A stretch of DNA of 64,000 nt from Bacteroidales bacterium (GCA_024686335.1 JAILCI010000040.1:6585-70584); one strand, 5' to 3'. Positions 6,206 through 64,000 are shown, counted from the first letter of the stretch. The notes: generated by a model from the letters alone, not told the origin. Made by a program: numbers and translations.

Positions 6206-6960
6206 AACCTATCCTTGAATTCAAAAACACCTGTGTTTCGTACACCAAGCAGACCATGGCAGTAAAATATGTCTCGGCCGCCATAGAGCGGAACACCATC
6301 ACCTCCATTATGGGGCCCTCCGGTTGCGGCAAGAGCACATTGCTTAGAAGTGTCAACCTAATGCACAACCTCTATTCAAACATCCGAGTAGACGGCGAAA
6401 TTCTCTTGAATGGCGAAAACATCCTGGATATGGAGCCTATAGATGTACGCCGCCGCGTGGGAATGGTCTTCCAGCGTCCAGTGCCATTTCCCACGATGAG
6501 CATCGCAGACAATGTGATGGCGGGCTATCTGCTCAACAACATTCACATTTCCAAGAGTGAAAAAGCAAAGACTGTGGAGCAATGCCTACGCAGTGTAGCC
6601 ATGTGGGACGAGGTGAAAGATGTATTGAACAAGAAAGGTACATTTCTCTCCGGCGGACAGCAACAGCGTCTCTGCATCGCACGTGCATTGGCAATGAAAC
6701 CAGACGTTCTGCTTATGGACGAGCCCACCTCCGCACTAGACCCGATAGCCACCAACCATATAGAGCAGCTACTGTTAGAGTTACAAAAGGAGGTTACTAT
6801 CCTGATCGTTACACACAACATGGGACAGGCTGAGCGTATCTCTTCTCATGCCATGTTCATGTATCTCGGAGAGCTTGTGGAATATGGAGATACCAAGAAA
6901 CTGTTTTCTCAGCCCGCTGACGAGCGAACTAAGGCATATCTCAAAGGAAAAATAGGATAA
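6193..6960 (+). CDS. pstB: Phosphate ABC transporter ATP-binding protein PstB
   Basis: It has Walker A GPSGCGKST, the ABC signature LSGGQQQR and Walker B LLMDEPTSALD. Confidence 0.95.
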   Translation: MESVKPILEFKNTCVSYTKQTMAVKYVSAAIERNTITSIMGPSGCGKSTLLRSVNLMHNLYSNIRVDGEILLNGENILDMEPIDVRRRVGMVFQRPVPFPTMSIADNVMAGYLLNNIHISKSEKAKTVEQCLRSVAMWDEVKDVLNKKGTFLSGGQQQRLCIARALAMKPDVLLMDEPTSALDPIATNHIEQLLLELQKEVTILIVTHNMGQAERISSHAMFMYLGELVEYGDTKKLFSQPADERTKAYLKGKIG

Positions 6961-6981
6961 TACATTAAAAACAAATAAGTT

Positions 6982-7176
6982 ATGGATATCGAAACAGGAA
7001 AGAAAATCCAAAATATTGTATATTGGGTAAGACTAGGTCTTTTTCTCACAATAGTTGTACTGATTATCAGTTGGGTAGGAATCGAATATTGTCGGGAGAG
7101 GGCAGAAAAAAAAGCACTTCAATCGGAAATTGAAGTGCCTTCAGTGTCCCCTCAAGGAGTATTCCACATACAGTAA
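6982..7176 (+). CDS. Small single-pass membrane protein, hypothetical
   Basis: The 64-aa ORF has one hydrophobic helix (LGLFLTIVVLIISWVGI) and lies 21 nt after pstB. No recognisable family. Confidence 0.25.
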   Translation: MDIETGKKIQNIVYWVRLGLFLTIVVLIISWVGIEYCRERAEKKALQSEIEVPSVSPQGVFHIQ

Positions 7177-7319
7177 AGTTTTTGAAACACACGGCTTTCC
7201 GTGTCCCGTTCATAGAAGAGAACACGAAATCGGTTACAGTTTTGTTTGAGGCATGTTTCCTTGTTATGCTATCTGTTTCACTTTCCTCAATGTGTTGACG
7301 CTCGTGCCCGTGAGTTTGC

Positions 7320-7781
7320 TCACGTTGGCCAGACTGTATCCTTTCCTCTAATTTCGGGAGAACCGGCAATGGTATTATACGACCATACATTTAATAAATA
7401 CCCGTCGTTGTGCAGGACAGCAAAACGGAGCGGAACCCATGTGGATACCATAGCAACACTTTCGTGGTCAATAACTATCTCCTCGGCAAACTGATCCGGC
7501 ATTTCAAGAATATCGGAGAAATAATCAAAAGTGTATTTACTTTCATCGTATTTCCACCACTCAATGTCTTCTGTTTCATCAACCTGTAATTTCCATCCCT
7601 CCTTTTCTCTGAATTGTTTTCCCTGTTCTCCATTCCAGCTTTCTGTGAGAAGAAGCTCCTTGTAATCCTTTTTTGCAGCAGTTTTTATTTCGCATTCCGA
7701 CTTGCATCCAGCGTAAAGACGCCCACAGAATGTTTCACCGTTTAGGGTGATTGGTTTTGAAAATAAGATTAGTCTAATCAT
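7320..7781 (-). CDS. Hypothetical protein (ORFan, AT-rich islet)
   Basis: The 153-aa ORF has an acidic, Trp-rich middle (EDIEWWKYDESKYTFDYFSD). No recognisable motif. The C-terminal about 20 aa may be read-through. Confidence 0.4.
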   Translation of the reverse strand: MIRLILFSKPITLNGETFCGRLYAGCKSECEIKTAAKKDYKELLLTESWNGEQGKQFREKEGWKLQVDETEDIEWWKYDESKYTFDYFSDILEMPDQFAEEIVIDHESVAMVSTWVPLRFAVLHNDGYLLNVWSYNTIAGSPEIRGKDTVWPT

Positions 7782-56534: not shown

Positions 56535-58595
56535 TCAATTCCCCTGTTTTTTATCTTCCATCTTCTTCTTAACGATCTCCACACTCTCTTTCAAGAACTT
56601 AACGTCGGGATGCTCCTCACCGTATGATACCTTTAGTATGTCCAGTGCTTTCTGAAAATACTCTAAAGCCTTTTGGTATTCTCCCTGATGATAACAGACA
56701 TTACCGATGTTGTTATAACCAGTTGCCACATTGGGGTGATTATCGCCATTTACGGATTTCCATATATCCAATGACTGCTGATAGTATTTCAATGCCTGCT
56801 CGTAATCCCCTTGGATTTTGTACACTCCGCCGATATTGTTGTAATTGGTAGCCACATCGGGATGATTCTCGCCATAGATCGACTTATAGATGACCAACTC
56901 TTTCTGGAAATAGTCCAAAGCCTGAAGATATTCACCCTGCAGATAGCATACCAGACCAATATTATTATAGCTAGTAGCTACATCGGGGTGGTTCTCTCCA
57001 TAAACGGACTTGCTGATTGAGAGGGTTTTCTGATAACAACTCATAGCTTGGGCAAACTCACCCTGAGAATAGTAAACCAGACCGATATTGTTGTAAAGTG
57101 TCGCCACTTCGGGATGCTCTTCGCCATATACTGACTTTCTGATATTCAGCGCCTTTTGATAGTATTCCATGGCTTGATCATATTCCCCTTGCGAGTAGTG
57201 CACCAATCCGATATTATTGTAACATATTGCCACATCGGGATGGTTTTCACCATACAAAGACCTACTGATATTCAAAGCACTCTGAAATTGTTCCAAAGCT
57301 TGTGAATATTCCCCTCGACTATAAAGAACGCCTCCAATATTATTGTGACTTGTTGCAACGTTAGGGTCAATCTCTCCGAATACAGACTTGCTAATTTCCA
57401 AGGATTTTTGATAATATTCCATAGCTTGGGTATACTCGCCCTGAGTTTTATACACAAAACCAATATTATTGTAGCATGTTGCCACATTTGGATGATTATC
57501 GCCATATAACGATTTCATAATCGTCAAAGATTTCTGATAAAAAGCCTTAGAATGTTCATACTCTCCTTGATTTTGGTAAACCCCAGCCAAATTGTTGTAT
57601 GCAGTTGCAACGGCTGGATGGGTCTCACCATTTTGCTTTATTGACTGACGCAGAGCCCGCTGATAAAAAGCAACGGCCTTACCCATATCGGCCATATAAT
57701 CATCAATAAAACTTCCAGCATCCAGTTGCCACTCCACATTGGTCGTGTCCAAACCTGCACGCAACTCCAGATAATAAGCTGCTGAATCATTCTGGAACTG
57801 TGCGGAATATTTCTCGAAATAGCTGTAGCATCGACGTGCGAGTTCCTCTTTATCAACGACATACATCTGCTCTGCCTTCTGCAGTCGTTCTCGCTGTTCT
57901 TGTAAAATTTGAGACTTCTGCTGATGTTCTAACACCTGGGCACGCAAATCTCCTCTTGAGCGGAGCAGAGAGTCTGCTTTCAACAACTCGCCATTCTCAA
58001 TAAAGAAAGAGACTTGGCGATAGAACTCGTCCAGCAGATCGTAGTCGAGACCAGCATAACGCTTGGCCATATCAGCAATGAGTCTCTCGTTATTCTCCTG
58101 TTCAGCATAGAGTGCTTGTAAAGCCTGGTGATAGGCATCTTCCGTCAACTTGTGGTTTTCAAGAAGCGAGTCTATCTCCCTTTCCCTTTGCTGAAGCTGG
58201 GCTTGCAGGTTTCTCCGCAGTTTCCGTTCAGATGCCAACTGGTCTGCGAGCTGCTTCTCCGGTGTTTCCATCGTAATCACCAATGGGGTTGCGGTACACG
58301 AATACTGTTTCTTCAACATATCAGGATCTGAGAGCACATAACCCTGTTTAAGCACATTATTAAGATAGAATTTACCTGCCGGAACTGTCAGTTTGAAATC
58401 GCCATTTGCATCACCCACGGTGGAGTGACCGCCAGATAATTGAATAGCCGCGCTGGGGATACGCTTGCCAGGAACCAATTGTCCTTTACTGTCAATTCTC
58501 CCCTTGGTCTTCACATAGCCTTTCTGGGTAGTCTGCGCAATGCCAAAGGTGGCAAAGAGCAGGATCAAAATAACACATATGTTCCATTTTTTCAT
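56535..58595 (-). CDS. Exported CarboxypepD_reg-like / coiled-coil / TPR (kinesin-light-chain-type, about 8 repeats) protein, paralog 1
   Basis: The signal peptide is MKKWNICVILILLFATFGIAQ. The beta-sandwich segment reads GYVKTKGRIDS...GDANGDFKLTVPAGKFYL. A long Gln/Glu/Arg-rich heptad region follows. After that come repeated 42-aa units of the form HPxVAxxYNNIGxVYxxQGEYxxAxxYYQKxLxI. Confidence 0.85.
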   Translation of the reverse strand: MKKWNICVILILLFATFGIAQTTQKGYVKTKGRIDSKGQLVPGKRIPSAAIQLSGGHSTVGDANGDFKLTVPAGKFYLNNVLKQGYVLSDPDMLKKQYSCTATPLVITMETPEKQLADQLASERKLRRNLQAQLQQREREIDSLLENHKLTEDAYHQALQALYAEQENNERLIADMAKRYAGLDYDLLDEFYRQVSFFIENGELLKADSLLRSRGDLRAQVLEHQQKSQILQEQRERLQKAEQMYVVDKEELARRCYSYFEKYSAQFQNDSAAYYLELRAGLDTTNVEWQLDAGSFIDDYMADMGKAVAFYQRALRQSIKQNGETHPAVATAYNNLAGVYQNQGEYEHSKAFYQKSLTIMKSLYGDNHPNVATCYNNIGFVYKTQGEYTQAMEYYQKSLEISKSVFGEIDPNVATSHNNIGGVLYSRGEYSQALEQFQSALNISRSLYGENHPDVAICYNNIGLVHYSQGEYDQAMEYYQKALNIRKSVYGEEHPEVATLYNNIGLVYYSQGEFAQAMSCYQKTLSISKSVYGENHPDVATSYNNIGLVCYLQGEYLQALDYFQKELVIYKSIYGENHPDVATNYNNIGGVYKIQGDYEQALKYYQQSLDIWKSVNGDNHPNVATGYNNIGNVCYHQGEYQKALEYFQKALDILKVSYGEEHPDVKFLKESVEIVKKKMEDKKQGN
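56570..57610 (-). repeat. About 8 tandem 126-bp coding repeats (TPR units) inside paralog 1
   Basis: GCCACATYGGGRTGRTT... recurs at about 56723, 56850, 56976, 57102 and so on. Confidence 0.8.
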
Positions 58596-58639: not shown

Positions 58640-60565
58640 TTATTTTTCTTTTTCCAATTTACGCTTAACCATCTCGACATATCCGCTCACCTCTTGCGTA
58701 ATAGCATGATCATCCCCGTAAAGAGTTTTGCAAATGGATAGCGATTTTTGGAAACACTCCAAAGACTTCGCAAAATCTTTCAATGAAGCATAAGCTGTAC
58801 CAAGATTATTGTAATCCTCCACAACGTCTGGATGATTGTCACCAAAAATTGATTTTCTGATGGTTAACGACTTCAGGAAACACTCCTTTGCACGTTCACT
58901 CTCTCCCTGGTAAAAATGGATATAACCCATGTTGTTATAACTCACTGCAATATTGGGATGTTTTTCACCATAAAAAGACTTCCAAATGGCCAAGGCCTTC
59001 TGATAATAGTCCATCGCCGTGCTGAAATCCTGGGCGGAATAGTAAGCAAATCCGAGGTTGTTATAACTTTCAGCGACAGCGGGATGACTCTCGCCAAAGA
59101 CTGATTTTCTAATCGCTAGTGCCTTCTGATAGCATTCTGTCGCATGGGTCAAATCCGACAAGTAGAAATAAGAACCACCCATATTGTTATAGCATTCTGC
59201 CACCGTTGGATGATTCTCTCCATAGACTAACTTTCGGATTTCCAAAGATTTCTGATAATTCTCCATCGCCTTGGTATATTCACCCATACGTTCATACACA
59301 TAGCCTATATTGATATAACTAGTTGCCACGTCAGGATGATTTTCCTCAAGGAGTTTTTGCTTGATGCCCAATGACTTCAGATGATAATTCAATGCCTGGG
59401 AATAATCCCCTTTTGATGCGTAGAGCGTGCCCAAATTGTTGTAACCAGCAGCCACAGCAGGATGGTTCTCGCCATATTCGGACTCGCTGACACTCAAGGC
59501 TTTCTGATAATTATCCAAGGCTTGATCATACTCTCCTTGGTGGTCATACACATAGCCAAGAGTATTATAACATACGGACAATTTAGAGATGTCTTTATCT
59601 TTTTGTGCTGATGTCAGACGCAAAGCACGCTGTAGATAGACCTTTGCTTTTTCGTAATCAGCCAAATACTCATCGATGTAATCCCCAGCCTCGAGTTGCC
59701 AATCCACATTCGTTGTATCCAGTTCTGCTCGCAACTCCAAGTAATAGGCTGCAGAGTCGTTCATAAACTGAGCAGAGAATTTCTCAAAATAACTATAACA
59801 ACGGCGGGCAAGTTCCTCGTTGTCGGCAGCAAAGACCGTCTCAGCCTGATGCAATTGTTCACGCTGCTCTTGTAAAGCCTGACCCTTGCGCTGTTGTTCC
59901 AGCACCTGTTGACGCACATCTCCTCTTGTACGCAATAGCGAATCAGCCTTTACCAACTCCCCATTCTCGATGCAGAAGGAAACCTGGCGGTAGAATTCGT
60001 CCAACAGGTCGTAATCTATCTCCGTATATCGCTTCGCCATCTCTGAAATCAGCATCTCATTATTTTCTTGTTCAGCATAGAGTTTTTGCAAAGCCAGTCG
60101 ATATTCCTCTTCATTTAGCTTATTAATTTCTTTGAGGGAATCTATCTCCTGTTCCTTTTGCATCAGTTGGCGCTGCAATTGGCGACGTAGCTTTCGTTCT
60201 GCAGCCAATTGATCGTCTGCCTGCTGTTCCCGAGTTTCCATTGAAATCACAAGTGGGTTAGCGGAACATACATACTGTTTCTTCAGCACTTCCGGGTCGG
60301 TAAGTACATAACCTTGCTTCTGAACGTTACTCAGAACAAACTTCTTGTCGGGTACAGTCAGTGTGAAGTTACCATTAGCATCAGCCACAGTAGAGCGACC
60401 TCCAGTGAGTTGGATGGCTGCACCGGCGAGACGCTTGCCAGGTATCAATTGTCCCTGACTGTTCATCCTCCCCTTGGTCTTCACATAACCCTTCTGGGTA
60501 GGCTGGGCGACGGCAAGTATCACTGAAAACACAACTAATATGGTAGTGGCTATAAAGCGTTTCAT
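58640..60565 (-). CDS. Exported CarboxypepD_reg-like / coiled-coil / TPR protein, paralog 2
   Basis: It has the same architecture as paralog 1, and the N-terminal about 300 aa are closely similar (GYVKTKGRMNSQGQLIPGKRL..., LDEFYRQVSF.IENGEL.KADSLLR.RGD). It has about 7 TPR units. Confidence 0.85.
   Translation of the reverse strand: MKRFIATTILVVFSVILAVAQPTQKGYVKTKGRMNSQGQLIPGKRLAGAAIQLTGGRSTVADANGNFTLTVPDKKFVLSNVQKQGYVLTDPEVLKKQYVCSANPLVISMETREQQADDQLAAERKLRRQLQRQLMQKEQEIDSLKEINKLNEEEYRLALQKLYAEQENNEMLISEMAKRYTEIDYDLLDEFYRQVSFCIENGELVKADSLLRTRGDVRQQVLEQQRKGQALQEQREQLHQAETVFAADNEELARRCYSYFEKFSAQFMNDSAAYYLELRAELDTTNVDWQLEAGDYIDEYLADYEKAKVYLQRALRLTSAQKDKDISKLSVCYNTLGYVYDHQGEYDQALDNYQKALSVSESEYGENHPAVAAGYNNLGTLYASKGDYSQALNYHLKSLGIKQKLLEENHPDVATSYINIGYVYERMGEYTKAMENYQKSLEIRKLVYGENHPTVAECYNNMGGSYFYLSDLTHATECYQKALAIRKSVFGESHPAVAESYNNLGFAYYSAQDFSTAMDYYQKALAIWKSFYGEKHPNIAVSYNNMGYIHFYQGESERAKECFLKSLTIRKSIFGDNHPDVVEDYNNLGTAYASLKDFAKSLECFQKSLSICKTLYGDDHAITQEVSGYVEMVKRKLEKEK
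58690..59615 (-). repeat. About 7 tandem 126-bp coding repeats (TPR units) inside paralog 2
   Basis: It shows the same periodic HP(D/A/N)VA..YNN.G motif at the DNA and protein levels. Confidence 0.75.
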
Positions 60566-60603: not shown

Positions 60604-61743
60604 TTACTGCTTAAAGATACAATAGCTATCCCCACATGGCATATATACGCTATCCTCATGCAGAGGAATAGAAGCGGAAAGCGGATAGGTCTTCCGCTGA
60701 GATTCCAACGGAACAGACAGTTTTACCAGTCCCGTTTCATCTGAGCGCACTGTTTTCCCATCTACGACAACATCTATATCTGAAAGAAAAGTCTCAGTCT
60801 GCGGATCATAAAGTCGAAAACGAATATCTCCGTATGTAGCAGGATCACGGGCAACATCAACTATTGTGTTCTTGGTTAAAATCAACGTTGTATCGGTAGG
60901 CAGAAAATCGCGACAGGTAACAGTAATCCGCACGGGGTGGTTCAAATATTTTGAGGGGATATTATGAAAAAGCACCTCCTCTTCCATTGCACGGAGTGTG
61001 TCCGTTTCCGTCTTGTTGTCAAGCGCCAAAGAGACCACGGCATCACGCAATACGGGCAAATTCTCATTATGAACCGAAATCTCGTTTACACGCAGAGAAA
61101 TATCCACAGGCTGGCTTTTTTGCCACACTGCAATCAAAGCTGCCAAGACTGCCACGCAGCCGACCGTCCATGCGACAGTCTTGCGGATAAGCAGACGACG
61201 ATGACGTTTCCATATTGTGTCAAACTCCACATCCAGCAATTTGGATATGAGCTGCACATAGGCTCGCTCACGGTTCATCAAAGGCAAGCGATAGATATTT
61301 TCATGTATATTAGCTCCAAGAATCTCCGGCAAGCCTAATGTTTTGACAACAGGGTTGAAGCATTCCGTGTCGGGGTTTCCGCTATTGGGTTCTCCATCCA
61401 CAATGAAAAAGTGGATATTCTGCGTTCGCCCAATCTGATGGAAAAAGGAGATCTCTCGCCCCACCCACTCCGACTTTGCGGAATGAGGTGAACAAATCAC
61501 AATAAGGTGCTGGGAAGCAAGCAGACGGTCTTGCAGTTCACGAGACAAACCTCCGGGCTGGATATCGGTAGGCGCAAAGAAAATAGGATTGATAGGAGTC
61601 CTCTCCCACCCTCGCTCGCTACACAACGTGGCTGGCATCCGGTAATGCTCCAGTTTCTTCTGCAACCGCTTACCCCACTTGATATCATGGGAGTTATAGC
61701 TGATAAAAGCAAAATATTTGTACTGCTGTTCCATAAGTCTCAT
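60604..61743 (-). CDS. TIR domain - single TM helix - beta-rich ectodomain protein
   Basis: The N-terminal YFAFISYNSHD strand motif is present. SEWVGREISFF places W93-x3-E97 in the position of the TIR catalytic Glu. The TM helix is TVAWTVGCVAVLAALIAVW (about residues 189-207). About 170 aa follow with Ig/CarboxypepD_reg-like strands (VVVDGKTVRSDETGLVKLSVP). The start overlaps the upstream stop as ATGA. Confidence 0.85.
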   Translation of the reverse strand: MRLMEQQYKYFAFISYNSHDIKWGKRLQKKLEHYRMPATLCSERGWERTPINPIFFAPTDIQPGGLSRELQDRLLASQHLIVICSPHSAKSEWVGREISFFHQIGRTQNIHFFIVDGEPNSGNPDTECFNPVVKTLGLPEILGANIHENIYRLPLMNRERAYVQLISKLLDVEFDTIWKRHRRLLIRKTVAWTVGCVAVLAALIAVWQKSQPVDISLRVNEISVHNENLPVLRDAVVSLALDNKTETDTLRAMEEEVLFHNIPSKYLNHPVRITVTCRDFLPTDTTLILTKNTIVDVARDPATYGDIRFRLYDPQTETFLSDIDVVVDGKTVRSDETGLVKLSVPLESQRKTYPLSASIPLHEDSVYMPCGDSYCIFKQ

Positions 61744-62039
61744 TTCTTCTTTCGAGATATTTCAAAACCATTCTTGACGATGAACTTCAACGTCTCAATG
61801 CTAGTATTGCGATCGAAGATTTTCTCCTCTTCAGACAACTGTTCGTATGGGACAAGGCAAGGATGCTTTTTTTCAACGTCATTGCGCTCAGGACCATAGG
61901 TCCAACCTTGAGCAAATCGTGTCGCCGACCAGACTTCATGCACATTCTCTGCCATCAGCTCGGCTAATTCCATCAATTCATCAGACAGTTTCACTTGAGA
62001 AGTGTCTACAGGACTAGGAGTATATCGATTTTCATTCAT
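61740..62039 (-). CDS. Stand-alone RyR (ryanodine-receptor repeat, PF02026-type) domain protein
   Basis: LAELMAENVHEVWSATRFAQGWTYGPERNDVEKKHPCLVPYEQLSEEEKIFDRNTS matches the RyR-domain consensus (HExWa...GW.yG....k.hP.lvpy.eLse.ek..dr). Its 99-aa size matches the small bacterial RyR proteins known from Bacteroides. Confidence 0.85.
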   Translation of the reverse strand: MNENRYTPSPVDTSQVKLSDELMELAELMAENVHEVWSATRFAQGWTYGPERNDVEKKHPCLVPYEQLSEEEKIFDRNTSIETLKFIVKNGFEISRKKK

Positions 62040-62052
62040 CTTACTGAGGATT

Positions 62053-64000
62053 TTATTTCAATGTCATGCGCATTAACCACGGAATATATTTAACTATCTC
62101 GAAATCGAACTGTTGTAAATCGGGAGAGAGATCATTGAAAGGTCTTATTGCATGATGAACATATAACTTCTTATTAGCACTTAATTCTTTTTCAAATTGA
62201 GAATTACAATATAAATCCTCAGACGACTTCGGTTTCCGGAATCCCATGAGCAGTTTCTCCACGTTCCAACGATTATGCTCCACACGACCTAATATCTCTA
62301 TCTCCTTATCCGTAAAAGGATTTTGAAGGATGGATGTACCGTTCGCATCCGAGTCACGCATGGCCTGCAGAGTGTCCAATTTACAGACAATACTGGAAAC
62401 ACAATAGAGATTCGACCACTTTTTAGCGACTGGTAGATTCAACCAATATTTGTTTGCTGCAGACCAAAGATCCTTTTCAGGAATTCCCTCAAGTTCTTTT
62501 GGGCTTTTATAACGGAAAGTGTTATAATCTGCTGTTTCGTAAAGATAATTCAACAATTTAGCCTGATCTATGATTGTCTCGTCCAAGCTATAGGCCATAT
62601 CATCCATGCCAAATGGATAGATATTTGCATATCGATGACCCCGTTTTGCCACATGCAATTTACCTTCATCCACTTTAGCATAGTCATATTCCTTGTCATC
62701 AGCTTTCCTGAGATTGGTAACGAAATCATCGGCCCGATTTTGACGGATAAAGAGCGGTACTGCATTATCGTACACCTCATCAGGCATATTCATCCCCAAA
62801 ATGAAATTTTGCCGCTGGTCAGACATGGCGATAAATACGGAAAGATACTGGTTATCAGTATCTTCAGCCCATTCCTTAATCATGTTCTGGATGTTGGAAT
62901 CGAAGGCATCACCTTTTACAAACTCAAATTCAACGTCCAAAAAATCATTATTGGGTAGATCTTTTGAAACAAGTTTGTCAATTTTCTTCGGCAGGTATTC
63001 AGCATTCTCTCCTGACATATCGGAGAAAAAGTATGGCTGAACCTCAAAGAAATGTCGATTTCGGGTGGTAAAAACCAGCAATTGCTCATCTGCATGTTTG
63101 TCAATAAAGGTTATGCGCGTCCGCAAGGAATTGTCTCTATCAAAGTTCGGGAAATGGAGCAGATGAGCGGCTTCTACTGCTAAGGAAGTAGAGAAATTCG
63201 AAAGGCCAAAAAAGACCAAGTGTACCCTTTTAGTATCTTCATAGACGATTCCATCACCATACACAGAAGGATATGGGATCGCCTCTTTCGGACTGTTTTT
63301 CTCTTTGTAGGAACGACGTACGAGCACCTGGTTGGCCCAATCATCATAGAAATTGTAGGGTACAAATTCAATCCCCAGGCGACAGATCTGCGAGAAAATC
63401 TCTGTTGTTTTAAATGATGAATAGGTATCGAAATCCTCAAAAACGCAAGTTATTCGTCTTGGCTTCGTCTCTGAAGCAGTCTCAGTCAGATATGCATATA
63501 TACTATCCACACTCTCCACGTTAGCAGCATCATGTTCAGGGCGGGTACGGTTACCGACAACGAATATCTCCTTGGCTGCTTCGAGATGAATACTCTTGTA
63601 ACAATCCTTCATGGTGCGATGCCCGTAGGTTATGAAAATCTGGTCCATCTTACCGTGAGCCACAGAACGGAGCAATTTCTCGTTTACGACCTTAGCATCA
63701 AGAGCAGTGAGCAAGAGCACATCCGCTTTCGGATCTTTGGCAAACAATTCCGAAATAATGGAGGGCACCATGTCATCGTAGCCCATGATTATAAAGTGAC
63801 CGCTTTTGAGATATTGAAGCAAACCATTCCGATGAGCCTCCACCCGACGATTGATTGTGTTTGTGATAATACCTATGATAATACCATTAAAGATAATGAG
63901 ACCGAAGAGGTATGAAATTCCGCTTGCTATCAGCAGCCAGCCATGGGTTCCTTCGGCAAGATAGATACAACTATACGCACTGGAATCTATAAGCAGAAAT
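62053..64000 (-). CDS. Membrane protein with two Rossmann-like (RCK/TrkA-N-like) segments and a C-terminal RyR-like module; the 5' end is outside the window
   Basis: The frame is open upstream of the track's GTG at 63843, all the way to the window edge. My translation there is FLLIDSSAYSCIYLAEGTHGWLLIASGISYLFGLIIFNGIIIGIITNTINRRVEAHRNG, which contains a TM helix. The Rossmann-like segments are HFIIMGYDDMVPSIISEL and VHLVFFGLSNFSTSLAVEAAHLL. The C-terminus reads LGRVEHNRWNVEKLLMGF...HHAIRPFNDLSPDLQQFDFEIV. Confidence 0.7.
   Translation of the reverse strand, partial: FLLIDSSAYSCIYLAEGTHGWLLIASGISYLFGLIIFNGIIIGIITNTINRRVEAHRNGLLQYLKSGHFIIMGYDDMVPSIISELFAKDPKADVLLLTALDAKVVNEKLLRSVAHGKMDQIFITYGHRTMKDCYKSIHLEAAKEIFVVGNRTRPEHDAANVESVDSIYAYLTETASETKPRRITCVFEDFDTYSSFKTTEIFSQICRLGIEFVPYNFYDDWANQVLVRRSYKEKNSPKEAIPYPSVYGDGIVYEDTKRVHLVFFGLSNFSTSLAVEAAHLLHFPNFDRDNSLRTRITFIDKHADEQLLVFTTRNRHFFEVQPYFFSDMSGENAEYLPKKIDKLVSKDLPNNDFLDVEFEFVKGDAFDSNIQNMIKEWAEDTDNQYLSVFIAMSDQRQNFILGMNMPDEVYDNAVPLFIRQNRADDFVTNLRKADDKEYDYAKVDEGKLHVAKRGHRYANIYPFGMDDMAYSLDETIIDQAKLLNYLYETADYNTFRYKSPKELEGIPEKDLWSAANKYWLNLPVAKKWSNLYCVSSIVCKLDTLQAMRDSDANGTSILQNPFTDKEIEILGRVEHNRWNVEKLLMGFRKPKSSEDLYCNSQFEKELSANKKLYVHHAIRPFNDLSPDLQQFDFEIVKYIPWLMRMTLK

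Follow-up and report, generated by a model that had tools for sequence, protein, structure and literature searches.

The minus strand of a 64,000-nucleotide (nt) stretch of DNA from a Bacteroidales bacterium (GCA_024686335.1 JAILCI010000040.1:6585-70584; the whole stretch is referred to here as the window) carries five genes with very short spacers, which encode, in this order, a membrane protein termed A, a 99-amino-acid (aa) RyR-domain protein (RyR99), a TIR protein and two TPR proteins. This rumen Bacteroidales operon may represent a Thoeris-like TIR signalling system in which an ADP-ribose (ADPR)-type signal made by the TIR protein would gate the channel-like protein A through a RyR module, a reading to which we assign an even chance. 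The genes, together with the main parts of the TIR protein, are located as follows:

62053..64000, minus strand: gene A, residues 66-713 and the stop codon (translation), with 648 codons inside the window and the first 65 residues beyond its end
61740..62039, minus strand: free RyR protein RyR99, 99 aa (Pfam RyR, PDB matches, phage homologues)
60604..61743, minus strand: TIR protein, 379 aa (Pfam TIR_2 E=1e-8, ThsB_TIR E=5e-6)
61294..61743, minus strand: TIR domain, residues 1-150, with the catalytic-type glutamate E97 at 61453-61455
61123..61179, minus strand: transmembrane (TM) helix of the TIR protein, residues 189-207
58640..60565, minus strand: TPR protein, 641 aa, with signal peptide, CarboxypepD_reg-like domain, coiled coil and TPR_12 repeats (Pfam, N-terminal sequence)
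56535..58595, minus strand: second, paralogous TPR protein, 686 aa, of the same architecture, the last gene of the cassette (Pfam, map of open reading frames)

The stop codon of A is separated from the RyR99 gene by 13 nt, the RyR99 and TIR genes overlap by 4 nt, and gaps of 38 and 44 nt follow. The ATGA stop/start overlap, from which an earlier note on this DNA had proposed coupled translation of the two genes, is present and reads AAATGAGAC; in close relatives, the RyR and TIR genes are instead spaced by approximately 20 nt. A public, identical 713-aa protein (P0001), encoded on contig L001 within the same five genes, provided the 65 N-terminal residues of A that are missing from the window. 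A scan for sigma-70 promoters and terminators was uninformative for Bacteroidales sequence.

RyR99 consists of a single RyR domain from end to end, as the earlier note had recognized. The match to Pfam family PF02026 (E=1.4e-36, 125 bits versus a cutoff of 27.4) spans residues 6-95 of 99 and model positions 1-90 of 91. The protein matches the Bacteroides thetaiotaomicron structure 3NRT in the PDB with E=1.7e-33, and E values against the solved repeats of RyR1-3 (Repeat12/Repeat34) and 3NRT range from 1e-25 to 1e-67. Homologues occur in 148 phage records; NCBIfam and PADLOC contain no entry for RyR99. Phage proteins of the PF02026 family, termed RyDEP, bind the Thoeris TIR products 2'cADPR and 3'cADPR (isomers of cyclic ADPR, cADPR), and one of them hydrolyses these products (PMC13232231, 2026 preprint). 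The remark in the earlier note that the function of bacterial RyR domains had not been established is outdated, as the preprint shows both binding and cleavage by phage RyR-domain proteins. The ligand contacts of the phage protein are H75, W78, H100 and D117 (PMC13232231). Their spacing of 3/22/17 is identical to that of H34, W37, H59 and D76 in RyR99, so that both proteins share the pattern H-x2-W-x21-H-x16-D in addition to their Pfam family; this correspondence is based on spacing and family membership and not on a direct alignment to RyDEP. In contrast to RyDEP, RyR99 is encoded on a host chromosome, where it shares an operon with a TIR gene, and is therefore more likely to serve the system as a regulator or partner than to counteract defence. 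The preprint is confined to viral proteins, with no discussion of host operons (PMC13232231).

Protein A itself very probably ends in a divergent RyR domain, because profile alignment, fold search, Pfam matches in distant family members and the conservation of the ligand residues all agree. The corresponding features are:

62056..62328, minus strand: divergent RyR module of A, residues 623-713 (hhalign, Foldseek against PDB and BFVD, Pfam in distant members, conservation)
62275-62277, minus strand: putative ligand codon H640
62266-62268, minus strand: putative ligand codon W643
62155-62157, minus strand: putative ligand codon H680
62104-62106, minus strand: putative ligand codon D697
62056..62592, minus strand: all-helical C-terminal domain of A, residues 535-713 (AlphaFold2, mean predicted local distance difference test score, pLDDT, of 87)

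A BLASTP comparison of RyR99 with A found nothing. Using an RyR profile built from 33 RyR proteins that neighbour A homologues, hhalign placed RyR99 residues 16-91 on A residues 625-711 with E=0.001 but a probability of only 16-21%; a match of an RyR profile to A residues 632-700 had the same E value. In this register, which includes a 15-residue insertion, H34, W37, H59 and D76 of RyR99 fall on H640, W643, H680 and D697 of A. A blind Foldseek search of the PDB with the AlphaFold2 model of residues 535-713 returned RyR repeats in 29 of the top 50 matches, including the top four, each with E of approximately 1; the TM-score against 3NRT, normalised to 3NRT, was 0.55 at a similar E value. In the viral structure library BFVD, a phage RyR-domain protein ranked second. 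Some alignments of the C-terminal model to the tandem Repeat12 span approximately 200 columns. The preceding residues 533-622 were considered as a second degenerate RyR repeat and rejected because hhalign gave no support from sequence (E=0.53 with RyR, E=0.27 with the second half of the C-terminal domain).

A profile of the A family was searched against 1.84 billion representative proteins and retrieved 2351 clusters at 50% identity with E<=0.001. Of the best 150 matches, 135 are full-length proteins, and every one of these retains the RyR-like module. Five distant members were picked for a canonical-looking C-terminal RyR motif (HPDIxPY...YDR), and all five match Pfam RyR at this place (model positions 19-76), four with E values from 4.6e-5 to 3.1e-3 and the fifth with 0.16; their scores of 12.7-24 bits are all below the 27.4-bit cutoff. 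H640, W643, H680 and D697 do not vary among 61 close A sequences and are conserved at 98%, 99%, 97% and 92%, respectively, in diverse relatives. The surrounding motif E-H-x-R-W, including its glutamate and arginine, is 98-100% conserved in these diverse relatives, compared with 97% for the second histidine and 92% for the aspartate. The divergent RyR copy that the earlier note had seen at the end of A is thus supported. It could be argued that the likeness is convergent or spurious and that the adjacency of A to RyR and TIR genes is functionally meaningless, given that A of the window has no Pfam match in this region, that Foldseek E values are near 1 and that the hhalign probability is low. 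Such a coincidence is highly improbable, as four independent lines give one fold in one register and the adjacency was recovered from both anchors, A and RyR, in addition to a natural fusion of the two (P0105, see below).

Conservation of the ligand residues also bears on the possibility that the RyR-like end of A and RyR99 are RyDEP-type glycosidases that clear cADPR isomers, in which case the locus would serve to detoxify, to salvage NAD or to guard against TIR toxins of foreign origin. Both proteins contain counterparts of the RyDEP catalytic dyad (H34 and D76 in RyR99, H640 and D697 in A). However, this dyad of histidine and aspartate is also kept in RyDEP homologues that bind without cleaving (PMC13232231), the locus itself encodes a TIR protein, and a glycosidase function would leave the fusion to a membrane-bound RCK scaffold unexplained. 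We consider this explanation very unlikely.

The membrane part and the central region of A were examined with an AlphaFold2 model built on 61 homologues (mean pLDDT 83). The model shows an N-terminal helix, a first TM helix (residues 20-43), short helices, a loop, a second TM helix (residues 86-114), two Rossmann-type domains and a helical C-terminus. The parts that lie within the window, in addition to the C-terminal domain given above, are:

63958..63999, minus strand: re-entrant, 'pore-helix-like' segment of A, residues 66-79 in the window, conserved and followed by the loop AEGTHG
63853..63939, minus strand: inner (second) TM helix, residues 86-114, with invariant G98 and G104, running directly into RCK1 (AlphaFold2 helix, hydropathy, conservation)
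63295..63807, minus strand: RCK1, residues approximately 130-300, with the degenerate Gly loop IMGYDDMV and invariant G138 and D140 (Pfam Slo-like_RCK, Foldseek)
62605..63237, minus strand: RCK2, residues approximately 320-530, with the degenerate Gly loop FFGLSNFS and invariant G330 (AlphaFold2 secondary structure, Foldseek to tandem-RCK gating rings)

Hydropathy analysis identified two hydrophobic TM cores with centres at residues 26-40 and 93-106 and a conserved amphipathic insert between them, so that the retrieved N-terminus brings the count from the at least one TM helix of the earlier note to two and adds a P-loop-like insert. The consensus of this insert, LPIYLLIDxNALNxLY, is strongly conserved and is followed by the six-residue loop AEGTHG (family consensus GGxxHG). 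The strings quoted in the earlier note (EHNRWNVEKLLMGF, HHAIRPFNDLSPDLQQFD, IMGYDDMV and FFGLSNFS) and its TM-to-Rossmann junction are all present in A, and the assignment of the region it had called double Rossmann-like to a tandem RCK gating-ring fold is supported by the predicted structure. In a Foldseek search of the PDB with the A model, the K+ channel GsuK was the best match (E=1.8e-8), followed by the gating rings of CASTOR and DMI1 and by Slo1, with E values up to 1e-5. The Pfam model Slo-like_RCK matches A of the window weakly (E=0.03) and exceeds its cutoff in two relatives, P0139 (39.7 bits) and P0211 (25.6 bits). Pfam matches in A and 60 close relatives were confined to weak hits to Slo-like_RCK, NARF and Ion_trans, and the A-family profile gave no match at E<=10 against all PDB sequences.

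Like GsuK, CASTOR, POLLUX, DMI1 and Slo1 (BK), A shows the order of two TM helices, the second being the inner helix, followed by RCK1 and RCK2, and these channels include its best structural matches in the PDB. Unlike them, it lacks a TVGYG-type filter and a sequence-level PDB match, carries an additional C-terminal RyR module and has a variable membrane part. The K+ filter motif [TS]xG[YFL]G was found in none of 61 close and none of 135 diverse A relatives, so that the absence of a selectivity filter, noted earlier from the part of A inside the window, persists with the N-terminus added. As the filter is missing and the number of hydrophobic segments varies across the family, A is channel-like in its architecture and is not classifiable as a K+ channel. 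Animal ryanodine receptors likewise carry RyR modules on the cytosolic side of a cation-channel protein, and their RyR repeats are the top fold matches of the C-terminal model of A; they differ in having a giant scaffold of the RyR/IP3R type with six TM helices, to which the 2TM-RCK scaffold of A is unrelated, and in having tandem pairs of repeats where A has one recognisable repeat.

The genomic context of A was analysed in an A-anchored scan with one genome per species, which yielded 62 loci, almost all of them from rumen or gut Bacteroidales metagenome-assembled genomes (MAGs) and including a block of approximately 12 closely related cassettes. Neighbours were counted by iterative searches of all open reading frames (ORFs) within 8 kb of A, and the values are raw counts. 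A TIR gene was found in 36 of the 62 loci, an RyR gene in 37, both in 26 and either in 47, nearly always on the same strand as A; in 28 loci, an RyR gene encoding approximately 100 aa is the immediate neighbour of A. Four distant members of the family (P0211, P0139, P0138 and P0253) were looked up regardless of their context. A TIR gene adjoins A in three of them, and the contig of P0253 is too short to tell: in P0211, a TIR-WD40 gene starts 2 nt after A, P0139 shows the gene order TPR, TIR, A, and P0138 the order TIR-FGE-sulfatase, A and two RyR genes. Look-ups anchored on small RyR genes gave two clusters directly after an A-family gene and one directly before a TIR-FGE-sulfatase gene. From the neighbourhoods around both anchors, it is concluded that A and RyR form the core pair, which TIR joins more often than any other partner. 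In P0105 (825 aa, found on four contigs), a complete A-family protein is naturally fused to a canonical RyR domain at its C-terminus, which argues that the A and RyR proteins act together physically.

At least six architectures were found among the TIR partners of A: TIR-TM-ectodomain, TIR-WD40, SIR2-TIR, Macro-TIR, Transglutaminase-kinase-TIR and bare TIR. Other recurrent neighbours of A are CHAT and TPR-CHAT proteins, trypsin-like and PrsW proteases, an AAA ATPase, TonB_C, TerB-like and DUF4301 proteins, and some A-family loci hold conflict-type genes (CHAT, SIR2, AAA_14/DUF4143). Two separate A-RyR-TIR loci, i.e., paralogous copies within one genome, occur in each of two single MAGs, JAGCFD01 (L002/L003) and JAFZZT01 (L004/L008). 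The view of the earlier note that this is a pattern of signalling and conflict systems fits the strong association with TIR genes.

These neighbourhoods and the similarity to GsuK have to be weighed against a physiological, non-immune role. In that case, A and RyR99 would be a cation channel with its regulatory subunit, tuned by NAD+ or ADPR-type metabolites in a way resembling GsuK, and the TIR and TPR proteins would only modulate NAD/ADPR levels or be dispensable. GsuK, the closest fold match, was solved with ADP and NAD bound to its RCK domains (PDB entry titles), A-RyR pairs without a TIR gene within 6-8 kb occur amid housekeeping genes, and the position of the cassette is kept in closely related species. 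Yet the frequency of TIR genes next to A and the variety of their architectures are too high for a passive neighbourhood, other neighbours are typical parts of conflict systems (CHAT, SIR2, Macro, trypsin, FGE-sulfatase, WD40, TPR), some genomes contain several paralogous loci, and A has no K+ filter. A purely physiological channel is therefore regarded as unlikely.

The TIR protein of the window is composed of the TIR domain, one TM helix preceded by the stretch KRHRRLLIRK and a C-terminal domain of 172 aa whose predicted location is extracytoplasmic. E97 is part of the motif WVGRE and is conserved in 98% of 53 TIR domains adjoining A homologues; TIR domains with this glutamate turn NAD+ into cADPR isomers or related signals (PMC13232231; 10.64898/2025.12.03.692087). 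Both TPR proteins start with a signal peptide followed by a CarboxypepD_reg-like domain, and the TPR gene keeps its place after the TIR gene in relatives. A BLASTP comparison of the TIR ectodomain with the N-terminal domain of the TPR proteins found no similarity. Given the TIR-TM-ectodomain layout and the signal peptides, the trigger of the TIR protein is probably sensed at the envelope or in the periplasm. Sensing at this site is unusual for Thoeris-type TIR proteins. The TPR genes form a tandem pair in the window versus a single copy in most close relatives, suggesting that the putative sensor was duplicated recently.

The flow of information might also be reversed, with A and RyR sensing membrane potential, ion leakage or a phage nucleotide, the TIR protein acting as an NAD+-depleting killer and the TPR proteins as scaffolds. 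Many bacterial TIR proteins fused to repeat sensors are NADase effectors, and such cases are explicitly excluded from the Thoeris survey (10.64898/2025.12.03.692087); the TIR partners of A frequently carry WD40, TPR, kinase or SIR2 modules. This arrangement is quite unlikely, however, as RyR domains bind TIR products, which places RyR downstream of TIR (PMC13232231), the TIR ectodomain and the TPR repeats provide candidate sensor parts of their own, and an RCK-gated pore is a typical output module.

In the proposed TIR signalling system, the TPR proteins, together with the TIR ectodomain, would detect an event at the envelope, upon which the cytoplasmic TIR domains would assemble. The assembled domains would convert NAD+ into an ADPR-derived signal, i.e., a cADPR isomer or a relative, which would bind to the RyR module that A carries on its RCK gating ring and thereby open a pore that is not K+-selective. 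Ion gradients would then collapse, resulting in an output of the abortive-infection or growth-arrest type. RyR99 may bind or hydrolyse the same signal and thereby set a threshold or switch the system off; alternatively, it may associate with the RyR module of A in the way that RyR repeats form pairs in the animal Repeat12. More tentatively, and possible rather than probable, all parts could be joined in a bacterial RyR-domain-gated channel that is opened by TIR-made cADPR isomers, a prokaryotic 'cADPR activates ryanodine receptor' axis. By analogy with the ring nucleases of type III CRISPR systems, RyR99 would here be an endogenous buffer or off-switch and a likely source of the phage anti-Thoeris RyDEP.

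Several observations weigh against the proposed TIR signalling system. In 15 of the 62 loci, TIR and RyR genes are both missing within 8 kb of A, and several A-RyR pairs lack a nearby TIR gene. A TIR domain fused to WD40 or TPR repeats can be an NAD-depleting effector and not a signal maker, and PADLOC lacks models for both A and RyR. Each RyR test on A falls below threshold when judged by itself; A of the window reaches no Pfam RyR score, and none was obtained at E<=1 for it and 60 close relatives. The hydrophobic segments ahead of the RCK part vary from two to more than four across the A family, the pore region is modelled at a pLDDT of 65-80 and the linker of residues 111-124 at less than 50. 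Because of these variable segments, the lower-confidence pore model and the lack of a known selectivity filter, A is only a candidate ion conductor. Finally, a prophage or defence-island setting was considered for the locus and rejected. The gene 3' of the second TPR gene is convergent, and the flanks of the cassette encode an esterase, a MatE transporter, a metallo-beta-lactamase (MBL)-fold protein, a TonB-dependent receptor, Mfd and malic enzyme. As these are housekeeping genes, the cassette is situated in neither a prophage nor an obvious defence island.

Thoeris systems are the closest term of comparison for the proposed pathway. As in Thoeris, a TIR protein with the catalytic glutamate adjoins a membrane protein that carries a domain whose homologues bind TIR-made ADPR signals, and the predicted output is a lesion of the membrane or its ion gradients. 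Among the 29 putative effector types listed in the Thoeris survey, type X has an ion channel as its effector (10.64898/2025.12.03.692087), which provides a precedent for a channel effector, and the type II effector is a TM-Macro protein. The operon differs from Thoeris in that the sensor is a PF02026-like RyR domain and not SLOG, Macro or one of the others, the TIR protein is membrane-anchored with an ectodomain, and genes for a free RyR and exported TPR proteins are added; moreover, the locus of the window is outside a defence island. The main text and the searched supplementary text of the survey contain no mention of RyR, PF02026, RCK or TrkA (10.64898/2025.12.03.692087), and neither RyR nor RCK comes up in the comparative-genomics studies of TIR and NAD conflict systems that were consulted. 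Within the literature searched, the A-RyR-TIR system is undescribed. Compared to known TIR signalling, its new elements are the receptor domain (RyR), the effector scaffold and the built-in RyR accessory protein.

An identity of A with the type X effector was rejected. In a Vibrio locus that contains a published type X Thoeris TIR gene (L070:2740-4468), two ThsB_TIR genes flank the gene for a multi-TM protein of 208 aa, which has no Pfam match and shows a TLTYGGF motif resembling a K+ filter; this protein is likely, judging from this gene adjacency, to be the type X effector; its comparison with the A family gave an hhalign E of 0.37.

If the proposed signalling is correct, RyR would be a new receptor domain and an RCK-ring channel-like protein a new effector class for TIR/Thoeris immunity. 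RyR99 would then be the first host-encoded regulator of ADPR-type signals, and the large bacterial PF02026 family would gain a cellular role. In animals, the link between cADPR and the ryanodine receptor has been debated and has remained open for decades; the operon would offer a small, tractable bacterial system for RyR repeats as sensors of cADPR isomers coupled to ion flux. Since the A family is large (2351 clusters) and has no Pfam, NCBIfam or PADLOC model, its annotation would label thousands of genes in gut and rumen Bacteroidales.

RyR domains were also found in other fusions near A. The following 310-aa proteins consist of an anti-sigma-like N-terminus, a weak Peptidase_C39-like middle part and a C-terminal RyR domain (E=1.2e-31), and their genes adjoin those of A homologues and several TIR genes:

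L049:10685-11629: 310-aa RyR fusion
L051:10724-11656: 310-aa RyR fusion
L058:3900-4832: 310-aa RyR fusion
L058:14844-15773: 310-aa RyR fusion

Each of them is preceded by a gene for a 185-aa protein that appears sigma-70-like by eye (Pfam reports a helix-turn-helix domain only), with a PrsW protease gene nearby. This arrangement suggests that the RyR domain may also serve as a sensor for transcriptional output. A 455-aa protein with an RyR domain followed by TPR repeats (L035:12906-14273) and a 249-aa protein in which a 150-aa N-terminal module precedes RyR (L048:6865-7614) are each encoded beside an A homologue; in L030 and L038, this 150-aa module is encoded by a gene of its own (157 aa) adjacent to A.

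Within the A family, some distant proteins of 990-1346 aa (P0253, P0254, P0263 and P0224) carry an FGE-sulfatase domain at their C-terminus, and TIR-FGE-sulfatase genes adjoin A or small RyR genes (L069:1119-2504; L074-L076 around 6300-7600). A 347-aa ORF corresponding to the C-terminal half of A (profile positions 373-711) is located directly before an RyR gene in L077 (4974-6017) and L079 (4933-5976) and is probably a truncated or decaying copy. P0170 (578 aa) combines an integrase N-terminus (Arm-DNA-bind_5, Phage_int_SAM_5) with the C-terminal half of an A-family protein, probably as a result of gene disruption by a mobile element or as a chimera of assembly or gene calling. A 503-aa DUF4301 protein (E=5e-220) is encoded just upstream of A in L013, L014, L017, L018 and L019, and in L017 and L018 it is followed by a 106-aa TerB-like protein.

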